Shown here in pieces: positions 1 to 56,052 of a stretch of 64,000 nt of DNA (position 1 is the first letter of the stretch; each line of letters opens with the position of its first letter). This DNA comes from a phage. The DNA lies in sequence record PZ386970.1; one strand, written 5' to 3'. The notes below the pieces were generated by a model. It was not told the origin of the DNA. It saw only the letters and a program-made list of their open reading frames with translations, and made no database searches. The position numbers were made by a program, and so were the translations under genes.

Positions 1-1839
<1,839 letters not shown>

Positions 1840-1866
1840 AAATAAAGCAAATTAAGAGGAATTAAA

Positions 1867-3849
1867 ATGGCACTTCTCTCTCCGGGCGTTGAGCTCAAAG
1901 AAACTACCGTACAGAGTACTGTAGTTAATAACTCCACTGGTACTGCTGCCCTGGCTGGAAAATTCCAATGGGGACCTGCATTCCAGATTAAACAAATCAC
2001 TGATGAAGTTGCATTAGTTGATATGTTTGGTACTCCTAATACGGATACAGCAGATTATTTCATGTCTGCTATGAACTTCCTTCAATACGGTAATGACCTT
2101 CGTGTTGTACGCGCAGTTGATCGTGATACTGCTAAGAACTCATCTCCTGTAGCAGGCAATATTGAATTCACAATCTCTGCTGCTGGTAGTAACTATGCAG
2201 TTGGTGATAAAATTATCGTTAAGTATTTGACCGAAACTGTTGAAGCAGATGGTTATGTCACTTCAGTTGATGTCGATGGTAAAATTCTTAACATTTATAT
2301 CCCGACCGGTAAAATTATTGCTCGTGCAAAAGAAATTAATGAATATCCAGCATTGGGTTCTAACTGGACCGCCGAAGTTGCCAGTTCTTCTTCTGGACTT
2401 TCTGGCGTTATTACAATTGGTTCTATCGTAACCGATTCGGGTATTCTGTTAACTGAAGTTGAAACTTCTGAAGAAGCTATTACTTCTCTAACTTTCCAAG
2501 AATCTATTAAAAAATATGGTGTCCCAGGCGTAGTTGCTCTTTATCCTGGTGAACTTGGCGACCAGCTAGAAATTGAAATCGTATCTAAAGCAGACTATGA
2601 CAAAGGTGCTTCAGCCCAGTTAAAAATTTATCCTGATGGTGGTACTCGTGCATCTACTGCTAAAGCAATCTTTGGATATGGCCCACAAACTGATGACCAA
2701 TATGCAATTATCGTTCGTCGTAACGATGCTGTAGTTCAGAGCGTAGTTCTTTCTACTAAACGTGGTGAACGCGATATTTATGGTAGTAATATCTTTATTG
2801 ATGATTTCTTTGCTAAAGGCGCAAGCAATTATATTTTCGCTACTGCACAAGGTTGGCCAAAAGGTTTCTCTGGCGTAATCAAACTGAGTGGTGGCTTATC
2901 ATCTAATGAAACGGTTGACGCCGGGGATTTAATGGAAGCTTGGGATTTGTTTGCTGACCGCGAATCTGTTAATGCGCAGTTGTTTATTGCCGGTTCTTGT
3001 GCAGGTGAATCTTTAGAAGTTGCTTCTACAGTTCAGAAACATGTTGTAGCAATTGGTGATTCTCGCCAAGATTGCTTGGTTCTTTGCTCACCGCCACGTT
3101 CAACTATAGTCGGTATTCCTGTTAATCGTGCAGTTGATAATCTGGTTGATTGGCGTACTGCATCAGGAACTTACACTGATAATAACTTTAATGTAAGTTC
3201 TACTTATGCTGCTATTGACGGTAACTATAAATATCAATATGACAAATATAATGACGTGAATCGTTGGGTTCCATTAGCTGCTGATATTGCCGGTCTTTGT
3301 GCTCGCACAGACAATATTTCTCAGCCTTGGATGTCTCCTGCCGGTTATAACCGTGGACAAATTCTTAACGTTATTAAGCTTGCAATTGAAACTCGTCAAC
3401 CACAGCGTGATCGTTTGTATCAGGAAGCTATTAACCCTGTTACTGGTACCGGTGGTGATGGGTATGTTCTGTACGGTGATAAAACTGCCACTTCTGTTCC
3501 TTCACCATTTGACCGTATTAACGTTCGTCGTTTGTTCAATATGGTTAAAACGAACATTGGTTCAGCATCTAAATATCGCCTGTTTGAATTGAACAACGCA
3601 TTTACCCGTTCTTCTTTCCGTACAGAGACTTCTCAATATCTACAGGGTATTAAAGCTCTCGGTGGTGTATATAACTTTAAAGTTGTTTGTGATACTACCA
3701 ATAACACCCCAGCAGTTATCGACCGTAATGAATTTGTAGCTACTTTCTACTTACAACCTGCCCGCTCGATAAATTATATTACGTTGAACTTTGTAGCAAC
3801 AGCAACGGGTGCCGATTTCGACGAACTGATTGGTGCTGTAGGTGGTTAA
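1867..3849 (+). CDS. 18: Contractile tail sheath protein
   Basis: 660-aa ORF; long identical stretches to T4 gp18 (e.g. LSPGVELKETTVQSTVVNNSTGTAALAGKFQWGPAFQIKQ); late promoter TATAAATA upstream. Confidence 0.95.
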   Translation: MALLSPGVELKETTVQSTVVNNSTGTAALAGKFQWGPAFQIKQITDEVALVDMFGTPNTDTADYFMSAMNFLQYGNDLRVVRAVDRDTAKNSSPVAGNIEFTISAAGSNYAVGDKIIVKYLTETVEADGYVTSVDVDGKILNIYIPTGKIIARAKEINEYPALGSNWTAEVASSSSGLSGVITIGSIVTDSGILLTEVETSEEAITSLTFQESIKKYGVPGVVALYPGELGDQLEIEIVSKADYDKGASAQLKIYPDGGTRASTAKAIFGYGPQTDDQYAIIVRRNDAVVQSVVLSTKRGERDIYGSNIFIDDFFAKGASNYIFATAQGWPKGFSGVIKLSGGLSSNETVDAGDLMEAWDLFADRESVNAQLFIAGSCAGESLEVASTVQKHVVAIGDSRQDCLVLCSPPRSTIVGIPVNRAVDNLVDWRTASGTYTDNNFNVSSTYAAIDGNYKYQYDKYNDVNRWVPLAADIAGLCARTDNISQPWMSPAGYNRGQILNVIKLAIETRQPQRDRLYQEAINPVTGTGGDGYVLYGDKTATSVPSPFDRINVRRLFNMVKTNIGSASKYRLFELNNAFTRSSFRTETSQYLQGIKALGGVYNFKVVCDTTNNTPAVIDRNEFVATFYLQPARSINYITLNFVATATGADFDELIGAVGG

Positions 3850-8268: not shown

Positions 8269-9837
8269 ATGACTACTATCAAAACTAAAGCTCAGCTCGT
8301 AGACAAATGGAAAGAACTGCTGGAAGGTGAAGGCCTGCCGGAAATCGCTAATAGCAAGCAGGCTATTATCGCTAAAATCTTCGAAAACCAGGAAAAAGAT
8401 TTCGAAGTATCCCCTGAATATAAAGACGAGAAAATCGCTCAGGCATTTGGTTCTTTCTTGACCGAAGCTGAAATTGGTGGTGACCACGGTTATAATGCTC
8501 AGAACATCGCAGCAGGTCAAACCTCTGGTGCAGTAACCCAAATTGGGCCGGCAGTTATGGGTATGGTTCGTCGTGCTATTCCTAATCTGATCGCTTTTGA
8601 TATTTGTGGTGTTCAGCCTATGAACAGCCCGACCGGTCAGGTATTTGCTCTCCGTGCAGTATATGGTAAAGACCCTATCGCTGCTGGCGCTAAAGAAGCT
8701 TTCCATCCGATGTATGCCCCAGACGCGATGTTCTCTGGTCAGGGTGCTGCTAAGAAATTCCCAGCTCTGGCTGCTGACACTACTACTGTTGTAGGTGATA
8801 TCTATACTCACTTCTTCCAAGAAACTGGTACTGTATATCTGCAAGCTTCTGCTGTCGTAACACTTGATTCTAGTGCAACTGATGCAGCTAAATTAGATGC
8901 AGAAGTTAAGAAACAAATGGAAGCTGGTGCACTGGTAGAAATCGCTGAAGGTATGGCTACTTCTATCGCTGAACTCCAGGAAGGTTTCAACGGTTCTACC
9001 GATAACCCATGGAATGAAATGGGCTTCCGTATCGATAAACAAGTTATCGAAGCTAAATCTCGCCAGCTGAAAGCTGCTTACTCTATCGAATTAGCACAAG
9101 ACCTCCGTGCAGTACACGGTATGGATGCTGATGCTGAACTGAGTGGTATTCTTGCTACTGAAATTATGCTGGAAATCAACCGTGAAGTTGTTGACTGGAT
9201 TAACTACTCAGCACAGGTCGGTAAATCTGGTATGACACTGACTCCAGGTTCTAAAGCGGGTGTATTTGACTTCCAGGACCCGATTGATATCCGTGGTGCT
9301 CGTTGGGCCGGTGAAAGCTTTAAATCTCTGTTGTTCCAGATTGATAAAGAAGCAGTTGAAATTGCTCGTCAAACCGGTCGTGGTGAAGGTAACTTCATTA
9401 TCGCTTCCCGTAACGTAGTTAACGTACTGGCATCAGTTGATACTGGTATTTCTTACGCTGCACAGGGTCTGGCTTCTGGTTTTAATACCGACACTACTAA
9501 GTCTGTATTCGCCGGTGTACTTGGTGGTAAATACCGCGTATACATCGACCAGTATGCTAAACAGGATTACTTCACCGTTGGTTACAAAGGCGCTAACGAA
9601 ATGGATGCAGGTATCTACTATGCTCCTTACGTTGCACTTACCCCACTGCGTGGTTCCGATCCTAAGAACTTCCAGCCGGTAATGGGCTTTAAAACTCGTT
9701 ACGGTATCGGTGTTAACCCGTTTGCTGAAAGTTCCCTGCAGGCTCCAGGTGCTCGCATCCAGTCCGGTATGCCGTCTATCCTGAACAGCCTTGGTAAGAA
9801 CGCTTACTTCCGCCGTGTATATGTAAAAGGCATCTAA
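8269..9837 (+). CDS. 23: Major capsid protein
   Basis: 522-aa ORF (T4 gp23 is 521 aa); high codon bias; TATAAATA at 8125-8132 inside the gene 22 3' end; strong terminator at 9862. Confidence 0.96.
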   Translation: MTTIKTKAQLVDKWKELLEGEGLPEIANSKQAIIAKIFENQEKDFEVSPEYKDEKIAQAFGSFLTEAEIGGDHGYNAQNIAAGQTSGAVTQIGPAVMGMVRRAIPNLIAFDICGVQPMNSPTGQVFALRAVYGKDPIAAGAKEAFHPMYAPDAMFSGQGAAKKFPALAADTTTVVGDIYTHFFQETGTVYLQASAVVTLDSSATDAAKLDAEVKKQMEAGALVEIAEGMATSIAELQEGFNGSTDNPWNEMGFRIDKQVIEAKSRQLKAAYSIELAQDLRAVHGMDADAELSGILATEIMLEINREVVDWINYSAQVGKSGMTLTPGSKAGVFDFQDPIDIRGARWAGESFKSLLFQIDKEAVEIARQTGRGEGNFIIASRNVVNVLASVDTGISYAAQGLASGFNTDTTKSVFAGVLGGKYRVYIDQYAKQDYFTVGYKGANEMDAGIYYAPYVALTPLRGSDPKNFQPVMGFKTRYGIGVNPFAESSLQAPGARIQSGMPSILNSLGKNAYFRRVYVKGI

Positions 9838-9861
9838 TCTTAATTGATTAAATCTTATTTT

Positions 9862-9885
9862 GGGAGACTTCGGTCTCCCATTTTT
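9862..9885 (+). terminator. Intrinsic terminator after gene 23 (GGGAGAC-UUCG-GUCUCCC + U tract)
   Basis: Perfect 7-bp GC-rich stem with UUCG tetraloop followed by ATTTTTGGTTTT. Confidence 0.8.
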
Positions 9886-9889
9886 GGTT

Positions 9890-10159
9890 TTATTTCTGTG
9901 CAATTTCGATGTAAGTTTTCAAAATATTTTGCCAATTAGGCATACCTTCTTGGACATATGCCGGAGAACCATCTTTGTTTTTGAATGATGCAAGTTTATC
10001 AGTGGCCCAATAACCTTTAGCTCGAGCTTCAGAATCAACTTTCATCCATACTTTGTTGAAGGCATTACCATTAACTTTTGCACCATATTTTTCTACTAAC
10101 TTAACGGCTTCAGCTTCTAGAACTTTTAAAGTATCTCGTAAGAAACGTGCTTTAGTCAT
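9890..10159 (-). CDS. Hypothetical protein (89 aa) in the 23/24 intergenic region
   Basis: Reverse-strand ORF with GAGGAG RBS 9 nt upstream of ATG and an early-type promoter motif upstream; no recognisable homology. Confidence 0.5.
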   Translation of the reverse strand: MTKARFLRDTLKVLEAEAVKLVEKYGAKVNGNAFNKVWMKVDSEARAKGYWATDKLASFKNKDGSPAYVQEGMPNWQNILKTYIEIAQK

Positions 10160-10189
10160 TTTGTTTACTCCTCTGTAGTTGATAAGTCT

Positions 10190-10219
10190 ATAGTATCACA
10201 TACCAAATACGTTGTAAAC
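10190..10219 (-). promoter_or_regulatory. Early promoter motif (GTTTAC-N18-TACTAT) for the 23/24-gap ORF
   Basis: Minus-strand GTTTACAACGTATTTGGTATGTGATACTATAGAC. Confidence 0.5.
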
Positions 10220-10225
10220 AATCTT

Positions 10226-10233
10226 TATAAATA
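10226..10233 (+). promoter_or_regulatory. Late promoter TATAAATA (gene 24)
   Basis: Exact TATAAATA about 28 bp upstream of the gene 24 ATG. Confidence 0.6.
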
Positions 10234-10260
10234 ATCTATATCACATAAGGAAAAAATGCA

Positions 10261-11541
10261 ATGAGTAAAATCCAAAAATTATTGCGTGAATCTACAACGT
10301 CTACTAGCAACTCAATCGGTCGCCCAAATCTCGTTGCTTTGACTCGCGCTACGACTAAATTAATATATTCTGACATTGTAGCAACACAAAGAACTAATCA
10401 ACCTGTTGCTGCTTTTTATGGTATTAAATATCTTAACCCAGATAACGAATTCACATTTAAAACCGGCGCTACTTATGCTGGCGAAGTTGGATATGTGGAC
10501 CGAGAAAAAATTACTGAGCTCACAGAAGAATCAAAAGCCACACTAAATAAAGGCGATTTTTTCAAATATAATAATATCGTCTATAAAGTGTTAGAAGATA
10601 CACCATTTGCAGATATTCAAGAAAGTGATCTAGAATTAGCTCTTCAGATTGCAGTCGTTCATTTAAAGGTACGGTTATTTTCAGATGCAGCGGTAACAAG
10701 CAAATTTGAAAGCTCTGGTAGCGAAATTTCTGATGCAAGATTCCAGATTAATAAATGGCAAACTTCAGTCAAATCACGTAAACTTAAAACTGGCCTCACG
10801 GTCGAATTAGCGCAAGATTTGGAAGCGAATGGATTTGATGCCCCTAACTTCTTAGAAGATTTGCTTGCTACTGAAATGGCTGATGAAATTAATAAAGATA
10901 TTCTTCAGTCTTTAATTACTGTATCGAAACGTTATAAAGTTACTGGAATTACTGACACCGGATTTATTGACTTGAGTTATGCGTCTGCTCCGGAAGCAGG
11001 TCGTTCGTTATATCGAATGGTGTGTGAAATGGTATCACACATTCAAAAAGAGTCAACTTATACTGCAACGTTTTGCGTAGCTTCAGCTCGTGCAGCTGCT
11101 ATTCTTGCTGCTTCGGGTTGGTTAAAACATAAACCAGAAGATGATAAGTATCTTTCACAAAATGCTTATGGATTCTTGGCAAATGGATTACCTCTTTACT
11201 GCGATACCAACAGTCCGTTAGATTATGTTATTGTGGGTGTTGTAGAAAATATCGGCGAAAAAGAGATTGTAGGGTCCATCTTTTATGCTCCATACACTGA
11301 AGGAATGGATTTAGACGACCCGGAACATGTCGGTGCATTTAAAGTTGTAGTTGATCCGGAAAGCTTACAACCGTCTATAGGTTTATTGGTTAGATATGCT
11401 TTATCAGCAAATCCTTACACAGTAGCAAAAGATGAAAAAGAAGCGAGAGTAATTGATGGCGGGGACATGGATAAAATGGCAGGACGTTCAGACTTGTCTG
11501 TTTTACTCGGTGTTAAATTGCCTAAAATTATTATAGATTAA
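10261..11541 (+). CDS. 24: Head vertex protein
   Basis: 426-aa ORF (T4 gp24 427 aa); TATAAATA at 10226-10233; terminator downstream. Confidence 0.93.
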   Translation: MSKIQKLLRESTTSTSNSIGRPNLVALTRATTKLIYSDIVATQRTNQPVAAFYGIKYLNPDNEFTFKTGATYAGEVGYVDREKITELTEESKATLNKGDFFKYNNIVYKVLEDTPFADIQESDLELALQIAVVHLKVRLFSDAAVTSKFESSGSEISDARFQINKWQTSVKSRKLKTGLTVELAQDLEANGFDAPNFLEDLLATEMADEINKDILQSLITVSKRYKVTGITDTGFIDLSYASAPEAGRSLYRMVCEMVSHIQKESTYTATFCVASARAAAILAASGWLKHKPEDDKYLSQNAYGFLANGLPLYCDTNSPLDYVIVGVVENIGEKEIVGSIFYAPYTEGMDLDDPEHVGAFKVVVDPESLQPSIGLLVRYALSANPYTVAKDEKEARVIDGGDMDKMAGRSDLSVLLGVKLPKIIID

Positions 11542-11570: not shown

Positions 11571-12569
11571 TTATGATACTAATTCAATCCATGCAGGACG
11601 CAGAACATCTTGCACCATTCGGACTAATTCTTTCTTAACAAGATTCGGATTATCAGATGATGTTAATACAATACCTTCACGAGAAGTTTCTTCCAGAATA
11701 TCTTGAACAGTCAATCCCATCACTTTGCCAAAATCTTTTGGCGTTACTGTCCCAATCTTAGAAATCACATTATTAACACGATTTAATGTAACATAACAAG
11801 CTAGAACATCAAGCAAGTTTTTGTCAATTTCGGTTAATGGGACCTGAGTTTTAATAGGCTTATCAGACTTTTTCTTTTCACTGAATTTAGAGTTCTTGCA
11901 CTTAATAGCTACACGAGTACCGTTTGGCAGCCATTTAGGGAAACAAGGTTTCAGAACATAACCTTCCGCAGTATTATCACCAATAACATAAGCATCAAAT
12001 ACACAATTATTTGCTTCGACAAGGTCTTCTGATGCAGTAGCATTATAAGCGGCTAAGACGGAATCAAGGTCGTTTGGAATCATGATAAGAGAATCAAATG
12101 TTCCACGTCCAAGCATTGGTGCCATTTTAAAACCGAATTCATTACAGATATCTTGCATTTCGTAATCGGTCAAATACGTATTATCACCACTTTCTGTATT
12201 GATAAGGATATCGAACACATAAAAATCTTTTTCACCGTAGTCAACACCTTTCTGGATTCCACCACCAGCGAATTCACCAAATACTTGATATGATACTGCT
12301 CGAGCTGTATACATGAATTCCTGAACGGCTTTAATAGCCTTATCATACTTCTTGAGTACGATTTCATAACCATAAAAATCTTCTGCTGGAAGAATAGGGC
12401 CTGTGCGCTTGGCGCATGTGACGTTGTCACGTTCAATTATTAACGAGAAGTTAGTCCCATGGATTTTCTCACGTGCTACCCAAACACCAGTAGTCAAACC
12501 ATTAGTGTAGAGTTTTTCAATAAACTTAGAGTTGTAGTGGTTTTCAAGACTGCTGTATTTCTTAAACAT
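11571..12569 (-). CDS. rnlB: RNA ligase 2
   Basis: 332-aa ORF; N-terminus [21 protein letters not shown]... and C-terminus ...[14 protein letters not shown] match T4 Rnl2 from memory, including the nucleotidyltransferase lysine motif region EKIHGTNFS. Confidence 0.92.
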
Positions 12570-32947: not shown

Positions 32948-32968
32948 AAGGGAGACCGAAGTCTCCCT
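32948..32968 (-). terminator. Terminator after the small basic ORF
   Basis: GGGAGAC-CGAA-GTCTCCC hairpin followed on the - strand by TTTTGTG. Confidence 0.65.
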
Positions 32969-47702: not shown

Positions 47703-47724
47703 AAGGGAGACCGAAGTCTCCCAA
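47703..47724 (-). terminator. Terminator after gene 32
   Basis: GGGAGAC-CGAA-GTCTCCC hairpin followed on the - strand by TTTTGAG; next early promoter motif 30 bp downstream. Confidence 0.7.
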
Positions 47725-56023: not shown

Positions 56024-56028
56024 ATTTA

Positions 56029-56052
56029 GGGAGACTTCGGTCTCCCATTTTT
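56029..56052 (+). terminator. Terminator after gene 35
   Basis: GGGAGAC-TTCG-GTCTCCC followed by ATTTTTG. Confidence 0.8.

Follow-up and report, generated by a model that had tools for sequence, protein, structure and literature searches.

The 64,000-nucleotide (nt) stretch of phage DNA considered here, sequence record PZ386970.1 (the window), belongs to a Mosigvirus, an RB69-like T-even phage. Between gene 23 and gene 24, which encode the major capsid protein and the capsid vertex protein, it carries an open reading frame (ORF) of 89 amino acids (aa) on the strand opposite to theirs. The ORF is best read as an early, expressed gene for an accessory protein that is exchanged among phages as a cassette, and we put the probability of this reading at about 0.8. 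The 423-base intergenic stretch in which it lies (window 9838-10260) is found at 90% identity or more in 145 phage records, nearly all of them from RB69-group phages (genus Mosigvirus) that infect Escherichia or Shigella.

In this model, the locus would be a self-contained immediate-early unit, oriented like the early genes and flanked on both sides by late capsid genes. Host sigma-70 RNA polymerase would use its promoter right after infection, the parts of that promoter being a -35 GTTTAC, a -10 TACTAT with a TG extension, and upstream A/T-rich DNA in which the other strand carries the late promoter of gene 24. The transcript would be a short, leftward, monocistronic mRNA, consisting of a leader of ~24 nt, the GAGGAG, and the 89-codon ORF, and would end at or near a UUCG hairpin that also terminates gene 23. 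Its product would be a soluble, basic 10-kDa protein of three helices and a beta-hairpin. The gene itself would be dispensable and swapped between phages as a cassette whose bounds are the conserved promoter/leader on one side and the hairpin on the other.

T-even early promoters form a class that is used by the unmodified host polymerase at the start of infection. The first-pass annotation had described an 89-aa reverse-strand ORF within the late structural block, together with a GAGGAG ribosome-binding site and an upstream GTTTAC-N18-TACTAT, and had credited it with an early-type promoter of its own. Each of these elements is present (Table 1), the ORF with the start and stop given for it and the GAGGAG 8 nt before its ATG. 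Read along the minus strand, the order is GTTTAC-AACGTATTTGGTATGTGA-TACTAT-AGACTTATCAACTACA-GAGGAG-TAAACAAA-ATG. The GTTTAC-N18-TACTAT, 30 nt upstream of the ATG, has the form of the T-even early class; in the sigma-70 register it reads TTTACA-17-TACTAT with a TG-extended -10, and transcription would start near 10183.

The phage-specific pattern GTTTAC-N18-TAYWAT has nine exact matches in the window, all nine on the minus strand, compared with 0.10 expected from shuffles. When looser spacers (16-19 nt) are allowed, there are 18 matches, all but one of them on the minus strand; in most cases a GAGGA-type site and an ATG come within 30-45 nt downstream. Furthermore, ~70 nt of promoter, leader, and ribosome-binding site align at ~76% with cassettes near 25.5, 36.4, and 47.6 kilobases (kb), and this locus has TGTGATACTAT at the -10 region in common with the 25.5-kb and 36.4-kb cassettes. 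When the region was scanned for generic sigma-70 promoters, there was no excess of sites (three, compared with 2.8 expected). The phage-specific pattern is far above chance, and the promoter is a member of the early-promoter family of this phage rather than a chance match. A middle, MotA-dependent promoter was also considered but rejected, since the spacing from GTTTAC to the -10 does not fit a Mot box at -30.

The same promoter has been predicted in RB69, whose sequence is identical to that of the window across it. The RB69 predictions comprise 57 early promoters, 13 of them ahead of 'novel ORFs' (Nolan et al. 2006, PMC1524935), and the one at this position, Pe:109605 on the minus strand, has a hidden Markov model (HMM) score of 29.9 (additional file 3 of the same paper). 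The RB69 lists also hold the gene-24 late promoter, Pl:109573, and a terminator designated '23-><-RB69ORF188c' (Nolan et al. 2006, PMC1524935). In more distant phages, the promoter is GTTTAC-N18-TACTAT in JS98, GTTTAC with a CATAAT -10 in VR20, and a form with a degenerate -35, GTGTAC-N18-TATTAT, in the metagenomic contig L007. Thus, JS98 and VR20 keep the promoter and L007 keeps a degenerate form of it, even though protein identity falls to 34-62%. In all three, it stands back-to-back with the gene-24 late promoter TATAAATA, and T4 has the same layout.

In the window, only 6 base pairs (bp) separate the late promoter on the plus strand from the early -35 on the minus strand (10214-10233). Because of this spacing, the late promoter occupies the position of an UP element with respect to the early promoter, and the A/T-rich DNA there may serve the early promoter in that role.

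That the ORF encodes a protein is indicated by comparison with other phages. A tblastn search with the 89-aa protein found matches in 241 phage records, 118 of them at 95% identity or more and 120 at less than 60%, and the annotation is 'hypothetical protein' in every annotated record listed but one, JX536493, which has no feature under the match. In JS98 (Dhakavirus, orf173) and VR20 (Gaprivervirus), the slot is occupied on the same strand by divergent homologues with 30-38% identity, and two T4-like metagenomic contigs have a homologue with 61-62% identity there. The ratio of nonsynonymous to synonymous substitution rates (dN/dS) is 0.10 for JS98 compared with Mosigvirus mobillu, with dS at 0.41 and not saturated, and 0.11 in two more distant pairs. 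Judged from these sequence comparisons, the ORF is a real protein-coding gene under purifying selection. The first-pass annotation had named a lack of conservation in close relatives as a result that would speak against the ORF; it is conserved there and under selection, and the ORF therefore stands.

The family to which the protein belongs is small and variable. Members are 83-93 aa long across 21 sequences that share ~30% identity, and in these 21 the residues M1, K3, F6, G31, N32, N35, and Q70 are invariant. The window protein matches PHROG 6003 with an E value of 2.1e-45, its residues 1-89 aligning with the 90-position profile, and it is thus a member; reciprocal profile searches recover only this family. 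An exhaustive HMMER search of 1.8 billion representative proteins gave eight matches, seven of which are small proteins (41-90 aa), the eighth being a 655-aa cytochrome b5 (Cyt-b5) repeat protein. In 5.8 billion proteins, the family amounts to 25 clusters. A scan of 185,579 bacterial and archaeal genomes with close-homologue patterns found no relatives. Between the window and JS98, the ORF protein is 34% identical, compared with 84% for gp23 and 70% for gp24, and so it evolves much faster than its neighbours.

These results bear on the objection that a chance ORF happens to lie behind a chance promoter match. The generic sigma-70 scan, which stays at the chance level, would be in keeping with such a coincidence. 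However, the phage-specific promoter pattern is far above chance, dN/dS is ~0.1, the ORF is syntenic across three genera, and the structure prediction described below is confident, so that this explanation is regarded as already refuted.

Table 1. Features of the 23/24 slot and its surroundings, in window coordinates
Feature	Coordinates	Strand	Basis or remark
Gene 23, major capsid protein; left border of slot	8269..9837	+	gp23 84% aa identity to JS98 gp23
Hairpin TGGGAGAC-UUCG-GUCUCCCA; gene-23 intrinsic terminator on +	9861..9880	both	terminator scan
Copies of the hairpin	9861-9880, 56028-56047, 32949-32968, 47704-47723	+, +, -, -	
89-aa ORF, ATG start; counterpart of RB69ORF188c/189c and JS98 orf173	9890..10159	-	PHROG 6003, ORF list
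Shine-Dalgarno GAGGAG	10168..10173	-	sequence; GAGGA-type element kept in sister cassettes
-10 TACTAT (10195-10190) with TG extension (10198-10197)	10190..10198	-	sequence, pattern count
-35 GTTTAC of T-even early-type promoter	10214..10219	-	pattern count; RB69 Pe:109605
A/T-rich divergent promoter region	10220..10245	both	gene-24 late promoter on +; candidate UP-element position on -
Gene-24 late promoter TATAAATA	10226-10233	+	sequence; RB69 late promoter Pl:109573
Gene 24, capsid vertex protein; right border of slot	10261..11541	+	70% aa identity to JS98 gp24a
rnlB	11571-12569	-	downstream neighbour of gene 24 in local gene order

Comparison of the 23/24 junction among T4-like phages bears out the suggestion, also made in the first-pass annotation, that the gap is a slot for variable cargo, since it is empty, holds segD, or holds the ORF family depending on the phage. 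In Tequatrovirus Shfl2, Jiaodavirus JEC, Hadassahvirus Mokit, and Gualtarvirus PSTRCR_127, the gap is only ~80-120 bp and empty. T4 has the homing endonuclease gene segD there in the reverse orientation, in agreement with the first-pass annotation; in Slopekvirus KP27, the gap is filled by a forward-oriented SegD-like gene. The ORF family fills the slot in Mosigvirus, Dhakavirus, and Gaprivervirus, and in Krischvirus kvi, a phage of the RB49 group (MN850615, 3101-3836), a 736-bp gap has one annotated ORF, of 50 aa on the forward strand. In Shfl2, whose slot is empty, the late promoter and the hairpin are present while the early promoter is absent, which argues that the early promoter arrives with the cargo. 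The 23/24 slot is thus a cargo hotspot. Framed by the gene-23 terminator hairpin and the gene-24 late promoter, it occurs in five states among sequenced phages: empty, with a homing endonuclease, with one allele of the ORF, with a second and divergent allele, and with the second allele plus a homing endonuclease. As such, the locus neatly illustrates how accessory genes are taken up by T-even phages within a block of core structural genes.

The exchange of one allele for another can be followed within the Mosigviruses. In Mosigvirus mobillu (MN850622, 1896-2925), the flanks are ~95% identical to those of the window, and the two sequences are identical through the promoter as far as AGACTTATCAA in the leader, after which they diverge. 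Because the identity ends at this point, the breakpoint of the allele replacement is placed in the 5' leader; the other boundary, on the right near the hairpin and the gene-23 3' end, is not as sharply defined. The mobillu allele encodes 88 aa and is 93% identical to JS98 orf173, compared with 31% to the window protein. After a further 3 nt comes a gene whose 219-aa product is homologous to T4 SegD (58% identity), with a similar hairpin beyond it. Among the 139 records with 95-99% identity across the junction, 120 are of the window type; of the remainder, the matches listed, mobillu itself and LF82-35, are all of the mobillu type, as is AV115 at 92.8%. The mobillu arrangement would place a homing endonuclease under the early promoter.

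A mechanism for such swaps has been put forward for T4-type phages. Arbiol et al. 2010 (PMC2839356) and Comeau et al. 2014 (PMC4122927) propose promoter-early/stem-loop (PeSL) motifs as a substrate for the modular shuffling of variable genes. The present locus resembles a PeSL cassette in that its variable ORF stands between an early promoter and a stem-loop, both of which recur in the genome. The promoter/leader has copies at 25.5, 36.4, and 47.6 kb, among others, the hairpin GGGAGAC-UUCG-GUCUCCC is present in four near-identical copies in the window compared with none expected, and the window/mobillu swap falls inside the conserved promoter/leader. The composite form of the motif, with the hairpin just upstream of the early promoter, occurs in the window at 47.7 kb and 32.9 kb; at the 23/24 locus, the hairpin is instead downstream of the ORF, and the gene-24 late promoter takes the place upstream of the early promoter. 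The locus also differs from the published PeSL cassettes in that it lies in the core structural block rather than in a hyperplastic region and its stem-loop doubles as the gene-23 terminator. The ORF fits a known category, that of early accessory ORFs carried on promoter/stem-loop modules.

The linkage to segD in mobillu raises the question of whether the ORF is tied to a segD-type endonuclease, as a helper, a regulator, an immunity factor, or hitch-hiking cargo. The mobillu-type member lies 3 nt upstream of the segD homologue behind the same promoter, T4 has segD in this very slot, and the protein is basic, as DNA-binding proteins often are. Yet the ORF has no similarity to SegD, and it stands alone in the window, in JS98, in VR20, and in the two T4-like metagenomic contigs. 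Furthermore, no endonuclease family was reported among its neighbours in the non-T4 contexts described below. Hitch-hiking is plausible as a means of spread but is not a function. A functional tie to segD thus seems quite improbable. The first-pass annotation had called the small protein unrelated to SegD, and this agrees with BLASTP (E value of 0.022 over 17 residues) and hhalign (probability 1.5%). On the same grounds, together with the lack of a Pfam nuclease match, the candidate of a GIY-YIG homing endonuclease was rejected, and the lack of similarity in BLASTP and hhalign likewise disposes of a degraded SegD remnant.

The gene is not kept intact everywhere. In the RB69 reference (NC_004928, 9292-9532), the ORF has one base inserted, one base deleted, and several clustered substitutions, which interrupt it, and is annotated in two parts, RB69ORF189c (29 aa) and RB69ORF188c (41 aa); phage mogra also has an interrupted copy. 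These interruptions argue that the gene is dispensable for laboratory growth, unless the RB69 indels are sequencing errors. Members of the family are also found well outside the T4-like phages, where identities are 30-38%. In the Vequintavirinae phage ABPH49 (MH533020, 3995-4261), a member lies in a long array of small unannotated genes on the same strand. Three metagenomic non-T4 contigs have members in similar small-gene arrays, and in another metagenomic contig a member adjoins GpJ-type tail genes. The presence of the family in Vequintavirinae and in non-T4 contigs indicates that unrelated virulent phages have exchanged the gene.

This distribution also speaks to a role in head assembly, for which the position between the major capsid and vertex genes is the only argument. 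The ORF runs against the head genes and its promoter is of the early type, not the late. T4 and many T4-like genera that share the head genes lack it, whereas non-T4 phages carry it among small early-type genes, and in RB69, a viable phage, it is interrupted. A function in the head is therefore very unlikely, more so than a link to segD.

With regard to the time of expression, the closest evidence comes from T4. Time-resolved omics tables (supplementary tables, PMC9697503) list T4 segD as 'early RNA, middle protein', with the protein detected. A 2010 review of T4 mobile elements stated that no promoter specific to a T4 endonuclease is early, that a segD-specific promoter had not been found, and that segD transcript levels were guessed to be vanishingly low. 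Upstream of segD in T4 (NC_000866, 7233-7323 on the minus strand), at a position homologous to that of the Mosigvirus early promoter, there is an ATTTAC-N18-TATTAT, and this degenerate early-type sequence may be the missing segD promoter of T4. The T4 locus thus resembles that of the window: the slot is the same, the gene is reversed, its early-like promoter and the late promoter of gene 24 stand back-to-back, and a hairpin closes the unit. It differs in its protein, which is unrelated and is 223 aa long compared with the 89 aa encoded here, and the present ORF has no nuclease-family match. The class of its promoter, together with the T4 omics for the same slot, points to early expression of the ORF in the window phage as well.

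The other end of the transcript is less well defined. The hairpin downstream of the ORF, for which the folding energy is -16.8 kcal/mol in plus-strand RNA and -13.5 kcal/mol in minus-strand RNA, is likely to form the 3' end of the ORF transcript or to stabilise it. On the minus strand, it is followed by AAAAUAAGAUUU and lacks a U-tract, so that some read-through antisense to gene 23 is possible; the terminator scan found no other minus-strand terminator in 9600-10500. Of the four copies of this hairpin in the window, those on the plus strand follow late genes, while those on the minus strand are directly upstream of early promoters.

These observations lend themselves to another explanation, in which the locus would work at the level of RNA: antisense read-through into gene 23, or occlusion of the gene-24 late promoter, would delay capsid expression, and the ORF would be secondary. 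Both the lack of a U-tract and of a second minus-strand terminator and the 6-bp distance to the gene-24 late promoter would suit this explanation, as would the fact that T4 keeps the early-promoter placement with a different cargo. Nevertheless, strong purifying selection on the protein is not what it predicts, nor is the occurrence of the protein in phages away from capsid genes. In addition, cargo-free slots lack the early promoter, which indicates that the promoter moves together with the cargo and is not there for the benefit of genes 23 and 24. An RNA-level function is thus considered unlikely, although a little less so than a tie to segD.

If the ORF is instead an early gene for a protein, as preferred here, the properties of that protein become relevant. 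It is a soluble, basic protein of 10.1 kDa with an isoelectric point (pI) of 9.6, no cysteine, and no hydrophobic stretch of membrane-spanning length. A pI of 9.2-9.9 is found in 20 of the 21 members even though they share only ~30% identity. This conserved positive charge suggests a nucleic acid or an acidic protein as partner. An AlphaFold2 model built from an 18-sequence alignment has a mean predicted local distance difference test (pLDDT) score of 93.9 and a predicted template modelling (pTM) score of 0.80, and consists of a helix (residues 3-25), a second helix (31-48), a beta-hairpin (52-60/66-70), and a third helix (76-88). An earlier model from seven sequences has the identical topology. 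In the predicted structure, the invariant G31, N32, and N35 are at the start of helix 2, right after the loop between helices 1 and 2.

Small early host-directed proteins are familiar from T-even phages, T4 AsiA, Ndd, and MotB being examples. The ORF protein is like these, and like Emp/Gp94 of AV110, in its size, its early promoter, its dispensability, and its lack of non-phage homologues, a likeness that extends only to the way in which such proteins work; no sequence or fold similarity was found between it and any phage protein outside its own family. By elimination and from its context, the protein most likely binds a host macromolecule early in infection, either for takeover of the host or for counter-defence. 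These two roles are inseparable at present, and, provided that the main reading holds, we would give each somewhat less than an even chance. A gene that is under selection, mobile between phage lineages, and without known relatives has a profile that fits many recent anti-defence and host-takeover factors.

Several points weigh against this interpretation. The proposal that the protein binds a host macromolecule is drawn from the behaviour of the class. The first-pass annotation had described the protein as one of no known function, and comparisons with Pfam, PDB, and a defence library indeed gave no relative that would support a specific activity: nothing in Pfam was above threshold, there was no match in NCBIfam, and neither the ORF nor the mobillu allele matched a PADLOC defence profile, the one PADLOC match by a family member being at noise level (E value of 0.012). 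A sequence-profile search of PDB gave a best E value of 1.4, Foldseek with the better model gave a best E value of 0.39 against PDB, and in BFVD it found only a member of the protein's own family and no fold relative outside it. Literature searches found no transcriptome for the RB69 group (Mosigvirus), leaving early timing to be deduced from other evidence, and the minus-strand hairpin without a U-tract makes the transcript 3' end uncertain. The RB69 frameshifts could be old sequencing errors rather than real loss. Finally, the one early-protein screen of a Mosigvirus that came to light, in AV110, chose 45 early proteins by their homology to T4 early proteins (bioRxiv 10.64898/2026.09.14.751387), and the ORF, with no T4 homologue, fell outside it by design.

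The locus is not a new or unique insertion, and its gene and promoter are already catalogued, namely, as RB69ORF188c/189c with Pe:109605, JS98 orf173, VR7ORF190c, and PHROG 6003. RB69ORF188c/189c and Pe:109605 (PMC1524935) represent the same locus and gene at ~97% DNA identity, the difference being that the frame is broken in the RB69 reference (41-aa and 29-aa ORFs) and intact at 89 aa in the window; the gene is a 'hypothetical protein' in ~120 Mosigvirus records. JS98 orf173, VR7ORF190c, VR20 gp246, and the mobillu allele have the same slot, strand, promoter layout, and size (tblastn E values of 1e-4 to 7e-9) but only 30-38% aa identity, and the mobillu-type ORF is followed by a segD homologue. 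Literature searches on the RB69 ORF names found nothing. What is added here is the selection on the protein, its confidently predicted orphan fold, its conserved basic charge, and the presence of the family in other phage lineages, together with a two-allele polymorphism in which a linked segD homologue can stand behind the same promoter.

A broader hypothesis may be built on these additions. With this ORF, a new and so far uncharacterised class of effectors directed at the host, for either counter-defence or takeover, may have its first member; its fold would be one unseen in solved structures, and the family is spread over three unrelated lineages of virulent coliphages. At one T-even locus, its divergent alleles (~31% identity) would be exchanged under the guidance of the promoter and the hairpin, sometimes with segD behind them. 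This hypothesis is tentative, and we consider it less likely than not. If it is true, the identity of the allele could set the range of host strains.

A few minor similarities and neighbouring features complete the description. Sub-threshold Pfam matches to DUF4859 (E value of 0.003) and Ca_bind_SSO6904 were each seen in two of ten members, were inconsistent, and were discarded. A search of Rfam gave nothing above noise. The 655-aa metagenomic protein recovered by HMMER has six cytochrome-b5-like repeats and matches residues 40-70 of the family profile five times, through the motif W-T-x-E/D-K-L-A-x-Y/F-N-G-K-N/D-G-x-P-A-Y; the likeness between residues 40-70 and the N-terminal hairpin that this six-repeat protein repeats is weak. 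A relation to Cyt-b5 (PF00173) was judged spurious, since only the hairpin is matched, its repetition raises the score, and no family member matches PF00173. The resemblance is probably that of a short convergent hairpin motif.

With respect to the right-hand border of the slot, gene 24 is present as one copy in the window Mosigvirus and in T4, and two tandem gene-24 paralogues, 24a and 24b, adjoin the slot in JS98 (835-3399), VR20 (830-3394), and the metagenomic contig L007 (1337-3901).

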